NCBI GenBank assembly: GCA_963674945.2
Contig: CAXXWQ010000003.1
Coordinates: 1,024,001-1,088,000, forward strand
Length of the DNA stretch: 64,000 nucleotides
Source: an uncultured Desulfosarcina sp.
Lineage (GTDB): Bacteria; Desulfobacterota; Desulfobacteria; Desulfobacterales; Desulfosarcinaceae
Reading direction: 5' to 3'
The notes under the pieces: model-generated
Database searches by the model: none
Seen by the model: only the letters and a program-made list of their open reading frames with translations
Told to the model about the DNA's origin: nothing
Position numbers and translations under genes: made by a program
In this document: piece after piece, positions 30,648-46,819 of the stretch
How positions within the stretch are numbered: the stretch's first letter is position 1
How the letters are laid out: the number at the start of each line of letters is the position of its first letter

Positions 30648-32282
30648 TTAGAACACACGATGCACGATCCGTCCATCGAACAGCGTCATCTCCGCGCCGG
30701 CAGTATGGATCCGCTCTGGCGCCGACGTCAGGATGTTTTCGGAAAGAACCGCAAGATCCGCTTTTTTCCCGACCGCAATCTTTCCCAGGTCGTCGGCGCG
30801 ATGCACGGACGCAGGAGTCGCGGTGTAGGCACGAAGGGCCTCTTGGACGGTGACACGATTTTGCGGATACCATCCCTTTTCAGGGGTTCCGTCGGCTCGC
30901 TGCCGGGTCACCGCGGCATGGATTGCCGGCAACGGATCAGGATCGCACACCGGGCAGTCGGAACTGAACATCACCGGCACGGTTGTGTCCAACAACCGGC
31001 GAAAGGCATAGGTCCACCGGCCCTTTTCCCCCACTGCCCCGTCGATCAGGTTCATGTCCAGAATCATATTGGCCGGGGTTACGCAAAGCGCAAGATTCAA
31101 CGATCGCAGTTCATGGGCGTCCTCGGGCCGAATCATCTGCACGTGCTCGATGCGATGGGAAAGATAGGGGCGGGAACGACCCGTTTGCAGCCGCCGGGAC
31201 GAAAGACTGCGGAAAAGCCTGACGAGCTCGCGATTGGCGCGATCGCCAACGGCATGGACCATGACGGAAAGCCCCGCATTTTCCGCTTTTTCAACATCTG
31301 CGGCAAGATCGCCCATGTTCACCAAAGGCATACCGCAGCCGGCATCGAGAAAGGGGTCGATCATCCAGGCGGTGCGTGCCCCCATTCCGCCATCGGAAAA
31401 GAACTTGACGTGTCCGACACGCAATCGATCGTTGCCGAAACCGCTTCGAAGACCAAGCGCAATGATCCCGTCGAGGGCTTCCCCGCTCAGGGAAACCCAC
31501 GTTCTGAGGCCAAGGCGGCCTTCCTGGTCGAGCCGCTGGAACATCTGAAAGGCCCGGGCACCATCCTTGTCCGCCATCAGTCGGACGTCGTGAATACCGG
31601 TGATCCCCCGCCGGTGAAGGGCGGCGGTGGCATCCTCAAAGGCGGCAAGAAGTCCATCCGTATCCGGCGGTCCCATGGCCCGCCGCAATAAATTGATGGC
31701 CAGTTCCCGAAGAATGCCGGTGGGTGCTCCTGTTTGGTCGCGCTCGATCCTGCCTTCGGGCGGGTCCGGCGTGTTCGCATCGATACCGGCCGCCTGGAGG
31801 GCAACGGTGTTTGCCGCCGCCAGATGCAGGTCGCAACGCCACAGCAGTACCGGATGGTGGGGGGCTGCCCGGTCCAGTTCCTTCCGTGTGGGCATACAGG
31901 GCGCTGTCCAGTCCGTTTCGTTCCATCCCTGCCCCGTGATCCAGCGCCCATGGGGTGTGGTTACGGCGGCATCACCGACGCGACCCAAAAGCTCCTCGAT
32001 ACACGTAACATCATCGAGTTTGATGCTTTGTCGATTGACGGCCCATTCGTAAAAATGGATGTGGGCATCGATGAACCCCGGAACGACGAGCCGGCCACCC
32101 AGATCGATGGTTTCGGTATGGGCATCGGCCAAGGCGAGAAGATCGGCATTGCTGCCCACGGCGACGATGGTGTCACCGCCGACGGCCAAGGCCTGTGCTG
32201 CCGGCGACGCAATCGCCTGGGTAGCGATGGCGCCGTTGTAGAGAATGATGTCCGGAAATGAGGGAGAACAAGCCATGGCCAT
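30648..32282 (-). CDS. Amidohydrolase 3 (YtcJ-like)
   Basis: PGFIDAHIH, HAVGD, HRIEH, SSDCPV, GKKADL; exact start uncertain. Confidence 0.9.
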   Translation of the reverse strand: MAMACSPSFPDIILYNGAIATQAIASPAAQALAVGGDTIVAVGSNADLLALADAHTETIDLGGRLVVPGFIDAHIHFYEWAVNRQSIKLDDVTCIEELLGRVGDAAVTTPHGRWITGQGWNETDWTAPCMPTRKELDRAAPHHPVLLWRCDLHLAAANTVALQAAGIDANTPDPPEGRIERDQTGAPTGILRELAINLLRRAMGPPDTDGLLAAFEDATAALHRRGITGIHDVRLMADKDGARAFQMFQRLDQEGRLGLRTWVSLSGEALDGIIALGLRSGFGNDRLRVGHVKFFSDGGMGARTAWMIDPFLDAGCGMPLVNMGDLAADVEKAENAGLSVMVHAVGDRANRELVRLFRSLSSRRLQTGRSRPYLSHRIEHVQMIRPEDAHELRSLNLALCVTPANMILDMNLIDGAVGEKGRWTYAFRRLLDTTVPVMFSSDCPVCDPDPLPAIHAAVTRQRADGTPEKGWYPQNRVTVQEALRAYTATPASVHRADDLGKIAVGKKADLAVLSENILTSAPERIHTAGAEMTLFDGRIVHRVF

Positions 32283-32320
32283 GACGCAACCTGCCAATCA
32301 ATGAAATGACAAGATAGGGG

Positions 32321-33358
32321 TTACAATAAAAATCCCTCGGGAAAGGGATCGTTCCCATCGACCACGAACCGGTGATATCCGGTAATCTGGGCATTTCCCC
32401 GGATCTGCCCCACGATGCCGGTATACGGTCCGATGGCAACGGTTTTGATAATACGTCCCTCGAAGCGGGTACCCAGAGGGCCGGTATTGCCATAAACGTC
32501 GCCGACGCCCAGCATCCCTTTGTGGAAAAGCAGGGCCATCTTGGCCGTCGTGCCCGTACCGCACGGGGAGCGGTCCATGTGGGACTCGCCGTAGATAACC
32601 ACACCTTTGCCGCCGTCTTCTGAGCCATCCTCATCGTAAAACTCGGTGACATCCACCGTGTTGACTTCCGGCCGTTCGGGGTGATGGACCGAAAGGGTTT
32701 TGTTGGCGGCATCGATGATGGCCATTCCCAGGGAAATCAGCTTGCGGCTGTTGGCGGGAATCAGTTCCATGCCGATGGAACTGGCAGACACCATGGCGAA
32801 GAATCCACCCACGCAGACCAGGTCGACGGCAATGGTGCCGAAATCGGGAACGTGGATCTTTTGATCTGCATCCAGGACGAATGCGGGTACCATGTCGATG
32901 GCCACGGATTCGACACGGCCGGCGGAGATCCGGGTGTGGGCGTCCAATGGGCCGGATGGCGTGTCCACGGTGATTACCGCCTCGCCGGTTTCGGCCGACA
33001 GGATCCCGGTTTCGATGAGGGTGGCCACGGCACCGATGGTGGCATGACCGCACAGATACGGATAACGTCGGGCATCCATGTAGAACAGGCCAAACGCCCC
33101 GTGGTCACTGACCGGCGGAGTGAGAACGGCCGCCATGATGCCGCGGTGCCCCCTTGGTTCACGGGTCAGCAGTTTTCGAATGTGGTCGAATCGGGATTCA
33201 AAATGATCACGCTTGGCCTTCATGGTGTCACCCGGAAGGCTGTCGAATCCGCCGATCAGCAAACGGGTGGGCTCGCCCTGGGTATGTGAATCAATGGTGA
33301 CGATGTGGCTCTGGTAGCGTTCCCAAAACCCCTTTTCTATGCGTTGGTGAATCTCCAT
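32321..33358 (-). CDS. Proline racemase/hydroxyproline epimerase family enzyme (two-Cys)
   Basis: DSHTQGEPTR, EPRGH, LCGH, DRSPCGTGT. Confidence 0.92.
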   Translation of the reverse strand: MEIHQRIEKGFWERYQSHIVTIDSHTQGEPTRLLIGGFDSLPGDTMKAKRDHFESRFDHIRKLLTREPRGHRGIMAAVLTPPVSDHGAFGLFYMDARRYPYLCGHATIGAVATLIETGILSAETGEAVITVDTPSGPLDAHTRISAGRVESVAIDMVPAFVLDADQKIHVPDFGTIAVDLVCVGGFFAMVSASSIGMELIPANSRKLISLGMAIIDAANKTLSVHHPERPEVNTVDVTEFYDEDGSEDGGKGVVIYGESHMDRSPCGTGTTAKMALLFHKGMLGVGDVYGNTGPLGTRFEGRIIKTVAIGPYTGIVGQIRGNAQITGYHRFVVDGNDPFPEGFLL

Positions 33359-33504: not shown

Positions 33505-34605
33505 TCACGACCTGGCAATGAGATGGCAATGGTGCGGGGCAACCTGTACGCAGACCGTTTCGCCGATTTTGTAGATGTGGGTCCGCATCATGCTGATCAC
33601 GTGGATTTCACGGTGCTCTCCCAGTTCGATGAAGTAGCTGACCTCTCCGCCCATATAGCTGCGATCCTTGATTTTCCCCATGAAATGGTTCGTCCCTTCT
33701 TCGGGTTGAAATTCCGATTGGGGAAAGGCATCGAAACGTTGGGCGCGGACGACCATTTCCACGTGGTCCCCTTTGGTGAACCCACCCTTGTTCTGCGCGA
33801 TCAGCGTGTCTCCGGTTTCGATTCGGACGCGGACATGGTCATCGTCCACGTCGACGACATTTCCTGCGATGAAGTTGGAGTGCCCGAGAAAGTCGGCCAC
33901 GAAATGATTGGCCGGCTCATTGTACACCCATTGGGGGGTGCCTTCCTGCTGTTTTCTCCCGTCCTTCATCACGAGAATCTTGTCGGACATGCTCAGCGCT
34001 TCCCGCTGGTCGTGGGTCACGAAGATGGTCGTCACGCCGAGCATCTGCTGGAGATTGTCCACCTCGCGACGCATCTCTTCCCTCAGGTTCTCATCCAGGG
34101 CCGAAAGCGGCTCGTCCATGAGCAGAACATCCGGTTCGATCACGATGGCGCGCGCCATGGCGATGCGTTGCTGCTGCCCGCCGGAAAGCTGGCTGGGCAT
34201 GCGTCGTTCCACACCGGGCAGGCGCACCATTTCCAGGGCACGAGAAACCTTCTCCCTGATTTCATCTTTCGAGACTTTGCGATACTTCAGGCCGAAGGCC
34301 ACGTTGTCGAAGATGGTCTTATGGGGAAACAGGGCATAATTTTGAAATATCATGCCGAGGTTTCGCTTGTGAATGGGCATATCGTTGACACGCTTTCCGT
34401 TGATCCGGATCTCCCCCTCGGTGGGTTCCTCCAGTCCGGCCACCATGCGCAGCAAGGTGGTCTTGCCGCAACCCGACGGCCCCAGCAGGGTGACCAGCGT
34501 GCCCTCTTCGATATCGAAGTCCATCTTCTCGACCGCAGTAACGCTGCCGAATCGTTTCATTATGCCCTTAAACTGTACCATTGGCTGCTTTGTGCCGTCG
34601 GCCAT
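33505..34605 (-). CDS. ABC importer ATP-binding protein (PotA-like)
   Basis: GPSGCGKTT, FQNYALFPH, LSGGQQQR, C-terminal TOBE-like domain. Confidence 0.93.
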   Translation of the reverse strand: MADGTKQPMVQFKGIMKRFGSVTAVEKMDFDIEEGTLVTLLGPSGCGKTTLLRMVAGLEEPTEGEIRINGKRVNDMPIHKRNLGMIFQNYALFPHKTIFDNVAFGLKYRKVSKDEIREKVSRALEMVRLPGVERRMPSQLSGGQQQRIAMARAIVIEPDVLLMDEPLSALDENLREEMRREVDNLQQMLGVTTIFVTHDQREALSMSDKILVMKDGRKQQEGTPQWVYNEPANHFVADFLGHSNFIAGNVVDVDDDHVRVRIETGDTLIAQNKGGFTKGDHVEMVVRAQRFDAFPQSEFQPEEGTNHFMGKIKDRSYMGGEVSYFIELGEHREIHVISMMRTHIYKIGETVCVQVAPHHCHLIARS

Positions 34606-34682
34606 ACTGCCTGTCTCCTTCTATATTGCCTCACGCACCACGTCGCCCGTGTCAACGATCACCCGACCCGTAAGGCAGGTGG

Positions 34683-34716
34683 TTTGGATATCCGGCCCAT
34701 CGGCCGGATATCCAAA
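34683..34716. other. Perfect 15-bp stem-loop after the solute-binding protein gene
   Basis: TTTGGATATCCGGCC-CATC-GGCCGGATATCCAAA; probable mRNA stabiliser or partial terminator. Confidence 0.7.
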
Positions 34717-34758
34717 AGCAAAACGCTTACGGATGTAATGCGGTAGTCAATCGTTCGC

Positions 34759-35922
34759 TCAGCTACCGGCTTTGATTCGATCCCACTTCTCGGTCCACTC
34801 CACCTGATGCGCATTCCAGTATGCCGGATCGGCGAACAGATAGCCGTCCAGTTTGCCGGTGGGATCGAATGCCGGCATCTTTTTGATCTTCTCGGTCAGT
34901 TTGACCTTTGTCGGATCCAGGCTGGGTGGATAGTTCTGTCCCTCGGCCACCGCAATGGCCGCGGCCGGTTCCAGCATGAAGTTGAGCAGCTTTTGGGCGA
35001 CGGTAAGATCGGTGCCCTTCAACACGAAGAGATATTCCATCCAGGAGTAGGTACCCTTGGGGGAGAGATAACCGATGGGATGGCCTTCCTGCTGCAACGC
35101 CGCCACGCGCCCGGACCATGCCACCGTGGCATAAATCTCCTCGTTTGCCAGAAGGCTCATCAGTTCGGCCCCGGAACTCCAGTACTTCTTGATCAGGCCG
35201 CGCTGCTCGCGAAGTGCGTCCCACACGGCTTTCAGGTCCTTCATATCGTTGGGGCTCTGTGCCGTGTGCAACGCCGCATACCACATGTTGGTTCGAAAAT
35301 CCCCTCCCCAACTGCCCAGTTTTCCCTTCAGCGTCTTGTCCCACAGCAGGTAAACCCCCAGCTTTTCCGCCCTCTCCTTGCTGATGTGCTTGGTGTTGTA
35401 GGCGATGCCGGTCTGTCCAAGATCATAGGGAACCGCGGACAAGGTCCCCTTGGTGATTTCGCGCAAGGGTTTGATCATGGAAGGCATGACGTTTTTCAAA
35501 TTGGGAATTTGGGATTCATCCAACACCGTCGAAAATCCCAGATCCACATACCGGGCATAGTCGAAAACGGCGCTCAAATGGGCGATATTGAATTCTCCAC
35601 CGGGCGGGAAAGAGGCCTTGACGCGGGTCAGGTAGGAGTTCATATCACCGAACTCTCCATCGATCACTTCGATGCCCGTCGATTTGGTAAAAGGCTGGAA
35701 GGCATACTTTCGGAAGGCTTCGGAGACCGAACCGCCCCACCCGTCGAATCGGATGGATTTGGCTGCCCATGCATCCCTGACGGCGCCAGCGAAGGGCGTG
35801 CCGACCACGCCGAGGCAAGCACCGGCCATTGTCAGGTATTTGAGGAAACAGCGCCGGCTGATTTTGCCTTCCTGATATGCTTCGCGTGCCCGTTTTAGTT
35901 TCTCCGTTGTTACGATTGCCAT
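34759..35922 (-). CDS. Tat-exported solute-binding protein (PotD/PotF-like)
   Basis: SRRCFLK twin-arginine signal, GWGG, GIAYN, AWSGR. Confidence 0.88.
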   Translation of the reverse strand: MAIVTTEKLKRAREAYQEGKISRRCFLKYLTMAGACLGVVGTPFAGAVRDAWAAKSIRFDGWGGSVSEAFRKYAFQPFTKSTGIEVIDGEFGDMNSYLTRVKASFPPGGEFNIAHLSAVFDYARYVDLGFSTVLDESQIPNLKNVMPSMIKPLREITKGTLSAVPYDLGQTGIAYNTKHISKERAEKLGVYLLWDKTLKGKLGSWGGDFRTNMWYAALHTAQSPNDMKDLKAVWDALREQRGLIKKYWSSGAELMSLLANEEIYATVAWSGRVAALQQEGHPIGYLSPKGTYSWMEYLFVLKGTDLTVAQKLLNFMLEPAAAIAVAEGQNYPPSLDPTKVKLTEKIKKMPAFDPTGKLDGYLFADPAYWNAHQVEWTEKWDRIKAGS

Positions 35923-35944
35923 GGGGTCTCCTTTCGGCTGCGGG

Positions 35945-36742
35945 TTAAGGTTTTTCTTTTGAAAATTTTCGGGTCAAATAACCGGCCAGAAGTGGTGTTG
36001 CGATGGTCAAAACGATCATCACCGCACCCAACGCATTGATTTCCGGGCTGATGCTGTTTCTCAACATGCTGAAGATTTTCACCGGAACGGTCTGATTCTG
36101 TGCGGTGGCCCAAAACAAGGTGGCCGTAATATCGTCGAAGGATATGGTAAAAGAGAACAGTGCGCCGGCTAAAATCGCCGGCAACAAAAGGGGTAGCGTC
36201 ACATCCCGAAATGTCTGGAACGCATTTGCGCCCAATGTCTTGGCCGCCTCCTCGTACTCTTTTTTGATTCCCACCAGTCGTGCCTGGACGATGAGAAGAA
36301 CGTAGGGAAGCGTCAACACGACATGCCCGATCAACAAAAGGGCAAAACTCTTCGGCTGCTGAAGCCATCGCAAAAAAAGCAGCAGGGCGACACCGAGCAC
36401 CACCTCCGGGATCATGATGGGCGCCAGCAGCAGGGTGTTGAGGGTGTTCTTGCCCGGAAATTCGAAACGAATAAATGCCAACGCGGCAAGGATGCCGATG
36501 GTCGTTGCAATCAAGGCGGTCAAGGCACCGAGAAGCAGTGAATTTTGAAACGCATCGATGATGGACTCATTTTGGGCGAGTCTGATGAACCAGCGGAAAC
36601 TGAACCCTTCCATGGGAAAAATGCCGAACTGCTTTGGATTGAACGCCAGGACAATGACCACCACGATGGGAACAAACATGAACACGTATACGAGGATCGT
36701 ATAGAGTCGAATCAGTGACCAGCCCGGCGAGAAGTGCTTCAT
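35945..36742 (-). CDS. ABC permease (PotC-like)
   Basis: EEAAKTLGA loop, ISFDD, PEINALG. Confidence 0.92.
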   Translation of the reverse strand: MKHFSPGWSLIRLYTILVYVFMFVPIVVVIVLAFNPKQFGIFPMEGFSFRWFIRLAQNESIIDAFQNSLLLGALTALIATTIGILAALAFIRFEFPGKNTLNTLLLAPIMIPEVVLGVALLLFLRWLQQPKSFALLLIGHVVLTLPYVLLIVQARLVGIKKEYEEAAKTLGANAFQTFRDVTLPLLLPAILAGALFSFTISFDDITATLFWATAQNQTVPVKIFSMLRNSISPEINALGAVMIVLTIATPLLAGYLTRKFSKEKP

Positions 36743-36745
36743 CGG

Positions 36746-37612
36746 TTAGTTTCCTTGAAAACTCTTGAAGATCTGGTTGATCCCCAGGTATCGGTTGTAG
36801 GTCCACACGATAACAAACAGCAGGGAGAGCAGAATCACACTGATGGCGGAACCAAAGGGCCAGTCCAGGGTGCCGATGACCCGTTTGAAGATGAGGTTGG
36901 CGATCATGTCGTTTCCCGGTCCCCCCAAAATCATGGGCGGCAGATAGGTGCCCGCGGTCAGAACGAAAACCAGCAGGCAACCGGCGCTGACACCGGGAAG
37001 GCTCAATGGCAATGTGACCTCACGAAAGGCCTGCCATTCGGTGCACCCCATGCAACGCGCCGCCTCGAGCAGACTCTTGTCGATCCCCTCCAGGCTCACA
37101 TAGATGTTCAGGATCATGAAGGGCAACAGGTACATGAGCAGTCCCATGAGTACGGTGAACTCGTTGTACAGCATGGAGATGGGCGTTTCGATCAGGCCGA
37201 TGTTGATCAAAACATGGTTGATCAGTCCCGAATCCCCCATGATATTGATCCAACTCATCGTTCGGATAATGAAGCTGACCCAGAAGGGGAGCATGATCAG
37301 GAGAAGAAAAACCTGCTTGTACCGGCTCTGGCTGCGGTAGAAGAAATAGGCGGGAATATAACCCATGACCACACAAAGAATGACGGTTTCAAATGCGACA
37401 CGGATCGTTCGGATGAGAATTTTCGGGTAGAAGAAGTCTTCGAAAAACTTGGCGTAATTGCCCAGCTGAAAAGCGGGGATATCCGCTCCGCTGGGTGCAC
37501 GCAGCCAGAAGCTGTAAACGATGACGAAGCAGACGGGAATCACCAGCAGTAGAAAAACGGCGCTTAAGGAGGGGGCCAGCAATGCCCAGGGTTTCCATCT
37601 GTCAGATTTCAT
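36746..37612 (-). CDS. ABC permease (PotB-like)
   Basis: PFWVSFIIR, LLEAARCMGC, DWPFGSA. Confidence 0.92.
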   Translation of the reverse strand: MKSDRWKPWALLAPSLSAVFLLLVIPVCFVIVYSFWLRAPSGADIPAFQLGNYAKFFEDFFYPKILIRTIRVAFETVILCVVMGYIPAYFFYRSQSRYKQVFLLLIMLPFWVSFIIRTMSWINIMGDSGLINHVLINIGLIETPISMLYNEFTVLMGLLMYLLPFMILNIYVSLEGIDKSLLEAARCMGCTEWQAFREVTLPLSLPGVSAGCLLVFVLTAGTYLPPMILGGPGNDMIANLIFKRVIGTLDWPFGSAISVILLSLLFVIVWTYNRYLGINQIFKSFQGN

Positions 37613-37834
37613 GCTTCCCAATCCCGGATAACGAAGTGTGATTCTCTCATAGAAAGTACCCTCGAGGTGCGTATGGTTGACATGGAGAGGATAAGATCTT
37701 TGCGCGTGAAACAGATATCGGAAAAATCAACCATGTCTGAGCGGGTACCGGTAATGGAACCCTACCTGCCCATCTTAAAGTTGTCAAGCTGCCCGCATCC
37801 TCCTTTTTGTTGGGCAGCGTCTTCATTTCTGTTG

Positions 37835-38620
37835 TCATCTGCCATCTTCCGCCGGCAGTAATTTGGAAAGTATACGGGCCGTTTGAACGACCTTGGTCGC
37901 ATAGGCGGCGATGATATGGTCGCCGGAATGCTGCAAAACCGAAAAATCGAAGGATACGGCGCCGACCCCGCTGCCGACGACGGGATCCACCAGTGGCGCT
38001 CCGATGGCCAGCAGGCCGGGAAGATACTCTTCTTCGGAAACGGCATATCCAAGGGATTTCGCCGCCATCAAATCTTCCAGCAATGCCTTTTTGTCCACGA
38101 TGGTTTTGTCTGTCCTGGCCGTTAACGTCAAACGATCGACGACTTCGGCCATCTGTCCGGCCTCGAGGCTGGACAAGTACGCCTTTCCCAGAGCCGTATT
38201 GTGAAGGCAGTGCCTGGAAGCGTCGGGCAGGCGGTAAGTAAGGGTCTCTTGTGCTTCCCGGTGGTAGAGACGCCGGATCGTACCGTCCACGATCAATGCC
38301 ACATCGATGCTGATATTGTTCTCATCGTGAAGCCTGTCCACCGTCGTTTTGATCAGCCGCAGACGATCGGTGGCCTGAATCAGATTGGTACAAAAAAGCA
38401 TGCATAAAAGTGTCGGTCTGATTTTTTTGGTCTTCGGCTCCTTTTCCAGATACCCCAATGCCACTAGTGTATTGATGTAGCGATAGGTCGAGGTCATGTT
38501 CAGCCCCAGTGTTTTGGCAATTTCGCTTTGGGTCAGCACCGGTGTCTCGGCATTGAACAAGGACAGAATTTTCAGCCCTTTTTCCAGAGACTTGGAAAAG
38601 TAGTATTTTCCTTTTGACAT
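37835..38620 (-). CDS. IclR family regulator
   Basis: SLEKGLKIL HTH, TALGKAYL, GYAVSEEEY-x2-GLLAIGAP. Confidence 0.92.
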   Translation of the reverse strand: MSKGKYYFSKSLEKGLKILSLFNAETPVLTQSEIAKTLGLNMTSTYRYINTLVALGYLEKEPKTKKIRPTLLCMLFCTNLIQATDRLRLIKTTVDRLHDENNISIDVALIVDGTIRRLYHREAQETLTYRLPDASRHCLHNTALGKAYLSSLEAGQMAEVVDRLTLTARTDKTIVDKKALLEDLMAAKSLGYAVSEEEYLPGLLAIGAPLVDPVVGSGVGAVSFDFSVLQHSGDHIIAAYATKVVQTARILSKLLPAEDGR

Positions 38621-38640: not shown

Positions 38641-38682
38641 ATTTCACTATTATGGAAAATAAATTACTATAATAGTTAAAAT
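38641..38682. promoter_or_regulatory. Candidate IclR operator and divergent promoter region
   Basis: Imperfect palindromes TTTCACTATTATGGAAA and ACTATAATAGT between iclR and the KamA-like gene. Confidence 0.45.
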
Positions 38683-38736: not shown

Positions 38737-41199
38737 ATGGAACAACAAGAAACCGTTTTAACTGTCGAATACGGCAACTCGGAACAGGTGAACCGGGTGG
38801 CGCTTTCCGAACTGATGGCGGCGCTGACCGACTTCCTCGATCATTTCGTCACCAGGACATTCGTCGGACCGGCGTTTTTCGAAATCATCGAAGCCGGTAT
38901 CGGTCCCTCCAGAATCCAGCGGTTGCTCACCGCCTGTGGATACCCCAAAGATCCAAAGGGGTTTTTCGACAACTTGCTATCACAACTCGGACAGGCCAAT
39001 GGAACGAAAACGATCGTTATCAACGACGTCGTTCTGCCCCATATGCTGCTGGTGGCCATGATGGAGGTAATTCTACCCGGTAACCGCTTCGTCTCCATCA
39101 AGACCGTCGAACAGCTGGAGAAGGAAACCAACACGAAGATACCCGAAGCGGATCGCAACGACATGCAGCAGGTGCTCGACACGTACCCGGTTCGGCTGAG
39201 CATGCACACCATCCGGCAGATGCGGGTATCGGCAAATGTGGCATACCAATACATGCCTTTCGTACAGGAGTTGGATCCCGCCGGACACACCAATACCTGG
39301 ATCGGCCAATTCCATCAGGGGCTTTTGGAACAGATGTACCAGAACCGGGTCATCTTCCTGCTCAACATGAGCTGCCCGGTCTATTGCCGGTTCTGTTTCC
39401 GCAAGCACAAAGAGTCCCGCAACGAGGCAAACCCCACACCTGGCGACGTAAATCAAGCCGTCGCGCACGTGAAAAATTCGCCGACCATCAAAGAGATCGT
39501 AATCACCGGCGGCGACCCCTTCATAAACCACAAAAACATGGCTACCGCCATCGATGGCCTGATGGAAATCGAACACGTACAGTCCCTGCGGCTGGCGACG
39601 CGGTCCATCTCCTATTATCCGCACATGTTTTTGTCCGACGACGGTGCACTGCTGCGGTATCTCAAACGAAAGAGCCTGGAGCTTCAGGAACGGGGCAAAC
39701 GGATGGAAGTGGCCACCCATTTCATTCATCCCGATGAAATCTCCCCCCAGAGCCTGATGATCATTTCCGACCTGGTGAAAAACGGAATCGCCGTGTATGT
39801 CCAGACCCCGTTCTTGAAAGACTGCAACGACAAGGGACCGGAGTTGGTCCGGCTGTTTGGAATGCTTCGTGGCGCGGGTGCGGAGCTTCATTACATCTAT
39901 ATTCCGTGCAGCCCCATCCATGGAAACACCATCTACTGGGCGCCAATCGCAAATGGCCTTGCCGCAGGCAATTACCTGCGTGCCCATCTGTCCGACCGTG
40001 TGATCCCGCGGATCTGCACGGCGACGCCCATTGGCAAGATGGACTGGCACACCAGCGGGTGGGCCGTGGAACCGGTTGCCGGCAACGAAAACTTCATGTG
40101 GATCAGAAGTCCTTACACACCGGACTACTTCAAACGGTTCGCCCCCATTGCCAACGAGTTGGAAAACATCCGCGTAAACGCAGAGGGGACCATCGATATT
40201 CAGTATATGGCCCGAATCGGAGACGAGTCTTTGTTTCTCGGTCCTCGTCCCGTCGAAGCAAAAGGCGGCCGGATCCGAAAACAGGAAAACAAGGATGAAG
40301 TGACGCCCCTTTTGCAAACATGTTCCGGCATCGCAACATCCATCGTCCCGACCGGATCCGAATCCATCGCAAGGGTCCACGAAACAAGGGTCGAAATCGA
40401 TGCCGCGGCAACAGATGAGGATATCGCCTATATCCGTCGAGACGCTCATATTACCGATGTGGTGATTGTTTCCCGAACAGATGCCATCGACGTGCTGAAT
40501 GGCGTCAAACGGATCGTCCGGGAGTTGGAGCAGATCCCCCATGTGAACGCGGTACGGCTTCGCAGCCCCCATTTCAATTCTTTTCCGGGACGATACACGC
40601 CGGCCGTCGTCGATGCCCTCGGTGCGATGAACCGGCTGACCATGGTCAACCCGCTTCGCCTGGAGATCGAGGCCCAGTTTCTGGTGGCCGATGAAGTCGG
40701 CCCCGTCCATGGGCGGCTGACCCGGCAGTTGAATAACAGGGGAATTACGGTCTATTGCAACACACCGTTGTTGGGTGGAATCAACGACACGCCTTCGGCC
40801 ATCCATGAACTGGCCTATGCCTGCCGCCAGGCCGGAATCGAATTTCACCACCTCTATGTCGCCGGACTGGCCGTCCAGGAGCAGTGGAACGGCAAACACC
40901 CGGTGCACCTTTCCGACGTCATCGACATCGCCACACGGGTGCGCCGCGAGGGCAGCGGACGGGAGATACCCCGTTACATTGTCCGCACCATCCTCGGCGA
41001 GGTGGATTTCGGACTTTCATCGACCATTGAAGGGCGGGGGCCCGACCTTTCCGTCAAACTGATGCCCTACGATCTGGCATATTTCGACCGTATGGCAAAG
41101 GGTTTTGCCTGGCCATCCGGAGTACAAACCGATTCTGACGGAAAACCCATCGTTGCCGTTACCGGCCTGCGAAAAAACACCGATTTCGCACTATGTTAG
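38737..41199 (+). CDS. Double-length KamA-family (2,3-aminomutase-like) radical SAM protein
   Basis: CPVYCRFCFRK, TGGDP, LRLATR, THFIHPDE, QTPFLKDCND, PIGK; a second degenerate KamA-like repeat in the C-terminal half. Confidence 0.88.
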   Translation: MEQQETVLTVEYGNSEQVNRVALSELMAALTDFLDHFVTRTFVGPAFFEIIEAGIGPSRIQRLLTACGYPKDPKGFFDNLLSQLGQANGTKTIVINDVVLPHMLLVAMMEVILPGNRFVSIKTVEQLEKETNTKIPEADRNDMQQVLDTYPVRLSMHTIRQMRVSANVAYQYMPFVQELDPAGHTNTWIGQFHQGLLEQMYQNRVIFLLNMSCPVYCRFCFRKHKESRNEANPTPGDVNQAVAHVKNSPTIKEIVITGGDPFINHKNMATAIDGLMEIEHVQSLRLATRSISYYPHMFLSDDGALLRYLKRKSLELQERGKRMEVATHFIHPDEISPQSLMIISDLVKNGIAVYVQTPFLKDCNDKGPELVRLFGMLRGAGAELHYIYIPCSPIHGNTIYWAPIANGLAAGNYLRAHLSDRVIPRICTATPIGKMDWHTSGWAVEPVAGNENFMWIRSPYTPDYFKRFAPIANELENIRVNAEGTIDIQYMARIGDESLFLGPRPVEAKGGRIRKQENKDEVTPLLQTCSGIATSIVPTGSESIARVHETRVEIDAAATDEDIAYIRRDAHITDVVIVSRTDAIDVLNGVKRIVRELEQIPHVNAVRLRSPHFNSFPGRYTPAVVDALGAMNRLTMVNPLRLEIEAQFLVADEVGPVHGRLTRQLNNRGITVYCNTPLLGGINDTPSAIHELAYACRQAGIEFHHLYVAGLAVQEQWNGKHPVHLSDVIDIATRVRREGSGREIPRYIVRTILGEVDFGLSSTIEGRGPDLSVKLMPYDLAYFDRMAKGFAWPSGVQTDSDGKPIVAVTGLRKNTDFALC

Positions 41200-41353: not shown

Positions 41354-42019
41354 ATGTACTACCCATTCTGTCTGTTTGGCCATAAAATCGATCATCGCCC
41401 CGTGTTTACCGGTCTTACGGGCGATCCGTTCGTCGCGGATCTCTCGCCGGACAGCCTGTTTCTTACGGGAATGGACGTACGGGACCAGAGGGCTTTTCAG
41501 CACCGTCTGGAAAACGAAATGGGGACGAAGTACCAGTGGGGATTCGCACCCTATCTGGAGCGGCGCGATGCCCTGCTGAAAGATTGCCCCCAGATGGTGG
41601 CCGAAAGACGATTCATTCACCTGGGACTGGATGTCATCGTGGCCTTGGGAACGCCTCTTCATGCACCACTGGATGCAATCGTGGCCGAAAGCGGATATGA
41701 GCGTGGAGAGGGGAACTACGGTGGATACGTCCTATTGCGTCATACAAGTGCCGGTTTCAAGACCTTTTTCAGTTTTTATGGCCACCTTCGCAAGGATCAC
41801 CTGCCGACAGAGGGTACCGTCTTTCCGGCGGGGACACAATTTGCCGAAATCGGCGATTTCCACGAAAACGGCAACTGGTTTCATCATACCCACATTCAGG
41901 TGATCACTGAAAGGGGCATTGATGAAGGATACCTGTCAAAAGGGTACTGCTCACGAGCGGACCTTTGGAAGATCAACGATCTGTGCCCGTCCCCCCTTCC
42001 CCTTTTCAAGCGGGGATAA
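41354..42019 (+). CDS. Stand-alone M23 peptidase-domain protein
   Basis: HLGLD, GNYGGYVLLRH, FYGHL, ENGNW-x-HHTHIQ; SD AGGAGG; no signal peptide. Confidence 0.8.
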   Translation: MYYPFCLFGHKIDHRPVFTGLTGDPFVADLSPDSLFLTGMDVRDQRAFQHRLENEMGTKYQWGFAPYLERRDALLKDCPQMVAERRFIHLGLDVIVALGTPLHAPLDAIVAESGYERGEGNYGGYVLLRHTSAGFKTFFSFYGHLRKDHLPTEGTVFPAGTQFAEIGDFHENGNWFHHTHIQVITERGIDEGYLSKGYCSRADLWKINDLCPSPLPLFKRG

Positions 42020-45709: not shown

Positions 45710-46819
45710 ATGAAGTGCAACCTGATGCTGACCCAACGGTGTAATCTGAGATGCGGCCACTGCAATATCGACAAGGGATCGAGAACCATGTCCCTTTCCA
45801 TTGCAAAAAAGGCGATTGATTTCATTTTCAACCGTGCGCGCAAGGATGAAATCATCGATGTGGGTTTTTTCGGCGGAGAACCCCTGCTGGCCTTTGATCG
45901 AATGAAAGAGATCACCAGATACATCCAGGATCATGGTGATTTCCATCCGGATCGCTTACGGCTCTCCATCATCACCAACGGGACCCTGTTTTCCGACGCC
46001 ATCGCCAGGTTCGCAGGCGACTGCAATATCCGATTTGTCATCAACTGTGATGGGCCACCTGAAATCCAAGACATTTTTCGACGCCCCCTCACCGGCACAA
46101 ACGGATCGTCCGTGCTGGTTTCCCAGACAATAAAGCATGCCCTTGAAGCCTTGGATCGGGTAATGGTCAATACCGTTTTTCACCCGGCCACATTCCTCAT
46201 GCTGCCCCGGATCGTGGAATATCTCTCCGGTATGGGCGTACGGCACATCTGCCTCAACCCGGACTATTCCGCCCAATGGATGTCGCCCCACCTCAATCAG
46301 CTGCCCACCATATATCGGCAGATTGCCTATGAATACGTTCGTTTCAGAAAAATCGGCACACCCCACTTTATCAGCCTTATCGATGACAAAATCATCGTGA
46401 TCCTTCAAAACGGCTACTCGTCCGAACAAAGGTGTCAGATGGGAAAGACCGCGCTCGCATTTTCGCCCGACGGGGGAATCTATCCATGTGAACGGCTCTT
46501 GGGGAAGGCAGGCAAATGTCACCGAATCGGCCATCTGGAATCGCGTATCGAATGGGACAGGATCACTTGTCGCCCCATGCCCACGTCTCCTGTAAATGCA
46601 TCCTGTGAGACATGCGGCGTCAGTGACTATTGCAAAAACTGGTGCGGGTGCACCAATTTTTTCGCGTCAGGATTCTACAACCGGATCAATTCCTTCGTCT
46701 GCGCATCCGAAAAAGCGGCCATCCGCGCTGCATTCTTTGCCTTACAGGAGTTGGGAGACAAGATCTTCGAAAAAAATTGGAACCGCGCTGACGGTCATTT
46801 TCGTAATGGGGATGATTGA
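45710..46819 (+). CDS. Radical SAM/SPASM domain protein
   Basis: CNLRCGHC, FFGGEPLL, TNGT; SPASM CQMG...YPC...CETC-x5-C-x3-CGC. Confidence 0.9.
   Translation: MKCNLMLTQRCNLRCGHCNIDKGSRTMSLSIAKKAIDFIFNRARKDEIIDVGFFGGEPLLAFDRMKEITRYIQDHGDFHPDRLRLSIITNGTLFSDAIARFAGDCNIRFVINCDGPPEIQDIFRRPLTGTNGSSVLVSQTIKHALEALDRVMVNTVFHPATFLMLPRIVEYLSGMGVRHICLNPDYSAQWMSPHLNQLPTIYRQIAYEYVRFRKIGTPHFISLIDDKIIVILQNGYSSEQRCQMGKTALAFSPDGGIYPCERLLGKAGKCHRIGHLESRIEWDRITCRPMPTSPVNASCETCGVSDYCKNWCGCTNFFASGFYNRINSFVCASEKAAIRAAFFALQELGDKIFEKNWNRADGHFRNGDD

Follow-up and report, generated by a model that had tools for sequence, protein, structure and literature searches.

Which substrate does a KamA-type radical S-adenosylmethionine (SAM) enzyme act on when it keeps the cofactor-binding residues of lysine 2,3-aminomutase (LAM) but has lost both acidic residues of the pocket, and what would the second half of its double-length chain be for? 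The question is raised by an 820-amino-acid (aa) protein, here called tandem KamA, encoded in a 64,000-nt stretch of DNA (the window; positions 1,024,001 to 1,088,000 of contig CAXXWQ010000003.1, assembly GCA_963674945.2) from an uncultured Desulfosarcina sp. with a genome of 7.08 Mb that is 98.7% complete. LAM binds the side-chain amine of its substrate with two Asp residues and forms domain-swapped dimers, and to our knowledge few substrates are known for the radical SAM/pyridoxal 5′-phosphate (PLP) aminomutases (lysine, glutamate and arginine). We find that tandem KamA is a real, conserved and uncharacterised variant of the KamA-type enzymes for which a specific substrate can be predicted. 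From its sequence and genomic context we judge the chances somewhat better than even that it is a 2,3-aminomutase interconverting Nε-acetyl-lysine and Nε-acetyl-β-lysine, used for scavenging in this host, which has no ablB, the gene for the β-lysine acetyltransferase.

Two KamA modules in one chain

The gene and the parts of its product lie as follows in the window.

38737..41199, plus strand: tandem KamA-type radical SAM/PLP enzyme, 820 aa (translated open reading frame, profile matches)
38737..39093, plus strand: N-terminal extension, residues 1-119, without family assignment (7 of 119 columns at least 95% conserved)
39094..40251, plus strand: intact KamA module, residues 120-505 (match to PDB entry 2A5H; 151 of 381 columns, residues 120-500, at least 95% conserved)
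39373..39402, plus strand: CxxxCxxC (C213, C217, C220) and R222, which corresponds to LAM R134 (227 of 227 sequences)
39910..39912, plus strand: S392 at the position of LAM D293 (register from the 2A5H match and further alignments)
40021..40023, plus strand: A429 at the position of LAM D330 (family alignment, n=227)
40036..40038, plus strand: K434, the predicted lysine for PLP; its loop is shorter than that of LAM by two residues (227 of 227)
40327..41196, plus strand: cofactor-less KamA module, residues 531-820 (59 of 290 columns at least 95% conserved; profile-profile comparison)

The first half contains the motifs CPVYCRFCFRK, YIPCS and PRICTATPIGK, and the second AVRLRS, YCNTPLLGGIND, EFHHLYV and IPRYIVRTILGEVD, the last of which holds E755. 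Pfam recognises the radical SAM core only, and all six NCBIfam models of KamA type match in two stretches each, below cut-off; the broad KamA-family model TIGR00238 gives 149.9 bits against a cut-off of 199.2, as befits a divergent homologue. The sole solved relative at E<=0.1 is LAM itself (2A5H), which aligns with residues 198-433 (E 1.7e-17) and pairs R222 with R134, S392 with D293 and A429 with D330. By profile evidence the second half is KamA-derived: on its own it matches single-copy KamA-like proteins (E 8e-11, in a search of 1.84 billion representatives), and profile-profile comparison pairs it, at 99.9% probability, with the first half (E 7e-34) as well as with ordinary KamA (E 9e-35), the match to the first half extending into a C-terminal tail common to both. 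In both halves the loop of the PLP lysine is two residues shorter than the GGGGK of LAM. The description as a double-length KamA, given in a first-pass annotation made from the letters of the window alone, therefore holds for the two modules, but the protein is not simply two units, as residues 1-119 form an additional extension; the top Atlas score for that segment was 0.83, a lead only.

Two apparent natural split forms were discarded, the break in one genome (G033) being a 100-N assembly gap and that in another (G003) a frame break near residue 587-590. A search for shorter proteins returned chiefly fragments, plus the single-copy sister family described below.

Conservation of the family and its pocket

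In an alignment of 227 distinct full-length members (239 prior to duplicate removal), the Cys triad, R222, G258-G259 and K434 show no variation, and residue 260 is Asp in 216 sequences and Glu in 11. The second module has neither the Cys triad nor the GGD motif and carries Glu or Asp at the lysine position in 226 of the 227 (Glu755 here), while R546, H548, D574, R607, R736 and S740-G741-R742 are invariant; conservation of at least 95% in 59 of its 290 columns means that it is maintained by selection. The first-pass claims that the first repeat keeps CxxxCxxC, the Arg of CFRK and the PLP lysine of TPIGK, and that the second repeat lacks the triad and has Glu in place of Lys, are thus visible in the translation, and together with the profile comparison of the halves they extend the proposed active/inactive fusion from one protein to the whole family. 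The SG motif of LAM is kept in the second module (S740-G741), and the first has S419-D420 at that place.

The pocket is changed throughout. The position of LAM D293 holds Ser in 219 members, His in 6, Arg in 1 and Glu in 1, and that of D330 holds Ala in 223, Pro in 2, Gly in 1 and Ser in 1, so that Asp stands at neither position in any of the 227; the earlier assignment of these positions to YIPCS and PRICTA agrees with the 2A5H register, in which S392 lies opposite D293 and A429 opposite D330. A single-copy sister family (P0339-P0378, ~375 aa) shares the short lysine loop, T-x-x-GK, and the C-terminal tail, and among 22 of its proteins Asp is found at both pocket positions in 7 and at just one in none. 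Because Asp/Asp is thus seen in the same register in a short-loop context, Ser/Ala represents a true substitution, and the loss of both residues in all 227 members, when 7 of 22 sisters keep both, counts in favour of the acetyl-lysine proposal. The pocket pairs of the sister family are otherwise varied (D/D, E/S, I/A, M/V, T/L) and may hold further aminomutase specificities; one of its members is assigned to a Patescibacteria-group genome. The host genome itself has, outside the window, two ordinary single-copy KamA paralogues, both with Asp/Asp (G000:C4:579619-580995, which scores 479.8 bits on the AblA model TIGR03820, below cut-off, and G000:C4:2301067-2302134).

With regard to the origin of the two halves, a quick tree that included the sister family joined them as sisters (SH-like approximate likelihood ratio test 94, the second half on a long branch), and a tree without that family did not resolve their sisterhood (support 51). 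On these trees, internal duplication is likely but not firm as the origin of both halves.

Relation to known KamA-type enzymes

Tandem KamA resembles LAM of Clostridium subterminale (2A5H) and AblA (TIGR03820) in its CxxxCxxC, GGD, R134 equivalent and PLP lysine, and equivalents of R198/R202 and H230/Q258 are also present. It differs from them in the replacement of D293 by Ser and D330 by Ala, in the shorter lysine loop, in its ~120-aa N-terminal extension and fused cofactor-less module, and in its score of 146.9 bits against a TIGR03820 cut-off of 525.4. Glutamate 2,3-aminomutase (Eam, TIGR04368), arginine 2,3-aminomutase (TIGR04468) and EpmB (TIGR03821) share the KamA scaffold, but are single-module enzymes, and tandem KamA scores 138.3 against 650, 140.9 against 600 and 124.9 against 369.3 bits on their respective models. 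Its Ser/Ala pocket is not the Eam pair, which we take to be Lys/Asn, and presumably it is the pocket residues that set specificity on the KamA scaffold. The sister family, finally, has a single module as opposed to two. By score, tandem KamA is thus outside LAM/AblA, Eam, arginine aminomutase and EpmB, and by its aligned pocket residues it is outside LAM and Eam; alignment with LAM and scoring against the models of KamA, Eam and EpmB leave it below all cut-offs, with the two Asp not conserved and a C-terminal half that is of KamA descent, in keeping with the first-pass annotation. EpmB genes cluster with efp/epmA (PMC2821294). Neither gene is among the annotated recurring neighbours of tandem KamA, although no search was aimed at them.

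Scores below the cut-off of every KamA-type model, TIGR00238 included (149.9 vs 199.2), together with the many invariant polar residues of the second module, could also speak for an enzyme that is no aminomutase at all, with other PLP-radical chemistry such as epimerisation or elimination, or with a second module that acts as a ligand-binding regulatory domain. However, all aminomutase cofactor- and carboxylate-binding positions that we checked are invariant and the genomic context calls for interconversion of α- and β-amino acids, and we regard this explanation as very improbable.

No tandem KamA or acetyl-lysine aminomutase was found in the literature searched, with most subscription journals outside its reach, and the accessible portions of PMC2821294, PMC9477430, PMC6522883, PMC3958899 and PMC12361552 give no account of either. 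Two other KamA-type genes deserve mention. At L161:6036-7298, a KamA nearest to glutamate 2,3-aminomutase (550 against the cut-off of 650), with a Gln/Thr pocket, adjoins the proline-racemase-family gene. At L027:9086-11014, downstream of tandem KamA, a 349-aa KamA is followed by a CntK-like gene (histidine racemase family, below cut-off) and has NMT1-type ATP-binding cassette (ABC) genes upstream.

Distribution and association with ablB

The best 120 homologues listed, query included, are 794-839 aa long and, apart from the query, 69-76% identical; where a source is given they come mostly from Desulfosarcina and other Desulfobacterales, with one from Anaerolineales, and members of the family often carry the label lysine 2,3-aminomutase from their sources. 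Tandem KamA is carried by 19 of 24 genomes of the genus, by 2 of 301 genomes drawn from the phylum, both within the order, and by 44 of 201 genomes of the order, a single draw of related and in many cases incomplete genomes, so that counts from it overstate independence.

Within this sample of the order the gene follows ablB closely, being present in 27 of the 31 genomes with ablB and in 17 of the 170 without, spread across 17 families, and in 19 of the 27 the two genes lie within ~12 kb. An ablA above cut-off occurs in none of these 27 genomes, and the single ablA-ablB genome of the sample is without tandem KamA. As to the four ablB genomes that lack tandem KamA, two are represented by contigs with ablB, importer and amidohydrolase that end near the expected site of the gene, in the third, ablB lies behind a Lys/Arg/Orn importer and the class-III aminotransferase described below is present, and the fourth has canonical ablA-ablB. 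The same association is seen in the genus (tandem KamA in 11 of 11 ablB genomes, ablB in none of 5 non-carriers), and outside the order ablA adjoins ablB at 9 of 10 ablB loci and tandem KamA is found in none of the 10 genomes. Among the 120 loci used for neighbourhood counts, many of them on short stretches, ablB is present in 15, in three arrangements, and is directly upstream and co-oriented in 7; 13 of the 15 were scanned, and all exceed the cut-off of TIGR03827, the AblB model. Lys/Arg/Orn binding proteins over cut-off lie beside ablB in 3 loci.

Tandem KamA thus shares with AblA the genomic partner ablB, but ablB is absent from the host genome and from 8 of 19 other carriers of the genus, and is therefore dispensable. 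In the canonical pathway to Nε-acetyl-β-lysine, ablA acts first and ablB second (PMC11337218, PMC9049628). Like that pathway, the ablB-bearing carriers would combine an aminomutase with a TIGR03827 acetyltransferase; unlike it, tandem KamA takes the place of ablA, lies within a regulated import cluster that holds hydrolases and a racemase, and has a predicted order of steps that is reversed or catabolic. In an E. coli reporter, the AblB-family protein O34895 supported production of Nε-acetyl-lysine (PMC12549914), so acetylation of α-lysine is possible.

Co-occurrence with ablB and exclusion of ablA would be explained equally well if the enzyme were a 2,3-aminomutase that acts on plain lysine through a rewired pocket and takes the place of AblA, making the osmolyte in the normal order where AblB is present and, where it is not, turning β-lysine freed by a deacetylase back into lysine. 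This alternative gains from the seven loci with ablB directly upstream and co-oriented, from the 16 of 27 ablB-positive carriers in which nothing else matches TIGR03820 at E<=1e-120, and from near-invariant D420, a possible new acid. It has to contend with the absence of both Asp from all 227 members, though sister proteins with the same loop can retain both, and with four metagenome loci (L108, L121, L126, L142) in which tandem KamA stands beside an over-cut-off lysine aminomutase and would be redundant, a finding that speaks against simple replacement of ablA; L142 has a complete ablA-ablB pair as well as the same binding-protein family as our locus. We consider a plain lysine aminomutase unlikely, though worth keeping in view. 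The 'non-lysine' pocket of the first-pass annotation accordingly stands as regards the loss of both Asp, but is unproven as a statement on the substrate.

Gene cluster, importer and a possible alternative route

Tandem KamA and a gene for an M23-fold protein run divergently from genes for an IclR-family regulator, a PotABCD-type importer, a racemase-family protein and an amidohydrolase-3 protein.

30648..32297, minus strand: amidohydrolase-3 protein, candidate deacylase (47 of 120 loci)
32321..33358, minus strand: proline-racemase-family protein with both catalytic Cys and a motif of its own, YMDARRYPYLCGH (46 of 120 loci)
33505..37621, minus strand: PotABCD-type ABC importer with two permeases, binding protein (34759-35922) and ATPase (Pfam/NCBIfam matches)
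37835..38620, minus strand: IclR-family regulator, divergent (Pfam IclR; 40 of 120 loci)
38646..38676, no strand: two ACTATWATAG-type palindromic boxes between iclR and tandem KamA, candidate IclR operator (conserved across loci)
41354..42019, plus strand: candidate amide hydrolase of M23/LytM fold, carrying the motifs HLGLD and HxH (66 of 120 loci)

The binding protein of the importer is present in 56 of the 120 loci, and that of the host shares 68.5% identity with the binding protein whose gene immediately follows ablA-ablB in L142. The M23-fold gene is found in 29 genomes, 26 of which also carry tandem KamA; the best NCBIfam match of this stand-alone protein is the middle part of PRK06148. 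The racemase-family protein scores below the ProR, HypE and dehydratase cut-offs, and its subgroup motif is exact in 30 of 56 sequences. Proline or hydroxyproline as the substrate of tandem KamA was ruled out on the ProR and HypE scores and on the requirement of PLP for a primary amine.

The boxes between iclR and tandem KamA form a candidate operator, supported by conservation across loci: at 39 distinct iclR-flanked loci two boxes were read in 32, one in 4 and none in 3. The perfect 11-mer box occurs once in the 7.08-Mb genome, the operator scan finding no second perfect site, and with one mismatch allowed the pattern has 4 matches in the window, a number reached in 8 of 100 shuffles and so not significant alone.

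The importer also occurs without tandem KamA, and its company there is informative. Its binding protein is found in 42 genomes, 14 of them non-carriers. Four non-carriers (G186, G201, G210, G125) have, linked to the importer, genes for a class-III aminotransferase, 3-oxoacid coenzyme A (CoA)-transferase subunits A and B and an ArgE deacylase, and in a fifth a partial set of aminotransferase, CoA-transferase and deacylase lies at a contig end, with a thiolase added in 2 of the 5. The same operator box stands before iclR in G201, and its exact form is absent from the iclR locus of G125. At 60% identity or more, the aminotransferase is present in 7 of the 14 importer-positive non-carriers and in 1 of the 44 carriers; its best model is PRK06917, below cut-off (two proteins scanned). 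A route that transaminates its substrate to a 3-oxo acid, activates this with CoA, cleaves it by thiolysis and ends in deacylation follows the logic of N-acyl-β-amino-acid breakdown. Tandem KamA and the transaminase set look like alternative routes for one cargo, and the set with its importer is a candidate operon for anaerobic degradation of acetyl-β-lysine. Transaminase-set loci are L179:14209-19000, L177/L196, L204:3452-12768, L206:12877-17700 and L203.

The gene order of the set matches that of yodT-S-R-Q in the B. subtilis yodT-yodS-yodR-yodQ-yodP-kamA cluster, and its combination of aminotransferase, CoA-transferase and deacylase is like that of the yod cluster and of the β-lysine pathway of Pseudomonas B4. 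Unlike the reaction proposed for tandem KamA, that route would break down the β-amino acid by transamination, and the set is nearly absent from tandem KamA carriers. YodT is assigned to the class III family in PMC6522883, which also gives locus tags. In the host genome we found no BKACE, no lysine 6-transaminase at E<=1e-40 and no close YodT-like protein; a search of it for lysine 5,6-aminomutase was uninformative, since the control gave no match anywhere.

A 2,3-aminomutase for another substrate of the same gene cluster with a neutral side chain, for instance Nδ-acetyl-ornithine, a different ω-N-acyl diamino acid or a D-configured compound that the racemase supplies, would suit the neutral pocket, the ornithine aminotransferase near 3 loci and the racemase with both Cys and its own motif. 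The AblB proteins linked to tandem KamA also fall mostly outside the group that contains the 11 ablA-linked ones (unfinished quick tree, support 85) and differ at a few columns. Set against this, every acetyltransferase that was scanned in full length scores above the β-lysine acetyltransferase cut-off, L142 has a member of the same binding-protein family behind a canonical ablA-ablB pair, and in L160 the importer has a lysine 6-transaminase-like gene as its neighbour. We doubt that such a compound is the substrate.

Two distant copies of the binding protein, in the 66-67% identity range, have other neighbours: an Asp/Glu racemase at L201:5610-6329 and, at L202:6107-11718, an enolase-family racemase, DUF1611, a saccharopine-dehydrogenase-like protein, an M20 peptidase and an arginase. 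Racemases are thus met repeatedly in the surroundings of this importer.

Proposed function

The context, i.e. the co-occurrence with ablB, the importer and the transaminase set, favours acetylated lysine as the substrate. We give about an even chance to the full proposal, in which tandem KamA is a so far undescribed 2,3-aminomutase of Nε-acetyl-lysine whose single chain forms an asymmetric pseudo-dimer, serving osmolyte scavenging and, with AblB, synthesis in reversed order, and in which the importer is an osmolyte transporter. The 'different amino acid' suggested in the first-pass annotation would then be correct insofar as the specificity is likely to be new, although an Nε-acetylated derivative of lysine fits the context better than an unrelated amino acid.

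Mechanistically, the first module would bind [4Fe-4S]/SAM and, through K434, PLP, with the substrate carboxylate held by R222, and an azacyclopropylcarbinyl radical shift would carry the amino group between C3 and C2, as in the standard PLP radical-shift mechanism (PMC9105233). The neutral Ser/Ala pocket, perhaps with Thr430, would accept the uncharged acetamide in place of the ε-ammonium group. By analogy, the two halves would pack like the subunits of the LAM dimer, the second module likely standing in for the partner subunit and supplying needed residues in trans, a role suggested by the fact that it is the second, and not the first, module that retains the SG motif of LAM. In the host, the IclR-controlled importer would take up Nε-acetyl-β-lysine, tandem KamA would isomerise it to Nε-acetyl-lysine, from which the amidohydrolase, the M23 protein or both would free lysine and acetate; in ablB-bearing relatives the osmolyte could also be made in reversed order, with acetylation first and isomerisation second.

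It should be noted that several observations weigh against the acetyl-lysine proposal. Besides the relatedness of the sampled genomes, just one of five further carrier genomes had ablB, and that one partial. D420 is near-invariant (226 of 227) where all 27 comparison proteins have Gly, and could be a substitute acid for D293 and D330, which bind the lysine side chain in LAM. The racemase-family and amidohydrolase genes also occur in non-carriers and so need not act on the product of tandem KamA, the racemase-family gene is unaccounted for by the proposed pathway, and the other racemase families that flank the distant binding-protein copies (L201, L202) hint at a D-amino-acid cargo. An ornithine aminotransferase near 3 loci (L108, L121, L212) makes the chain length unsure. 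The proposal does not account for the racemase, for two hydrolases being needed, for the ornithine aminotransferase or for the N-terminal extension.

If the acetyl-lysine proposal is true, it adds a further substrate to the radical SAM/PLP aminomutases, through an enzyme family that 44 of the 201 sampled genomes of the order possess, and sulfate reducers would recover the methanogen osmolyte Nε-acetyl-β-lysine as lysine and acetate. Candidate genes are thereby at hand for what becomes of a common methanogen osmolyte under anaerobic conditions, comprising the importer, regulator and operator, mutase, hydrolases and the alternative transaminase route. The fusion of a live and a dead module may further prove to be a natural tool for probing the role of the partner subunit in LAM, an enzyme reported to show negative cooperativity (a title cited within PMC3958899), and an enzyme that takes a neutral side chain may serve the production of β-amino acids.

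Other genes nearby

Genes of the MttB methyltransferase family lie near the cluster in 5 of the 120 loci (L026:19776-21221, L050, L062, L108 and L121). The window holds a further, unrelated radical SAM open reading frame at 45710-46819, encoding 369 aa with CxxxCxxC near the N-terminus and a Cys-rich C-terminus.

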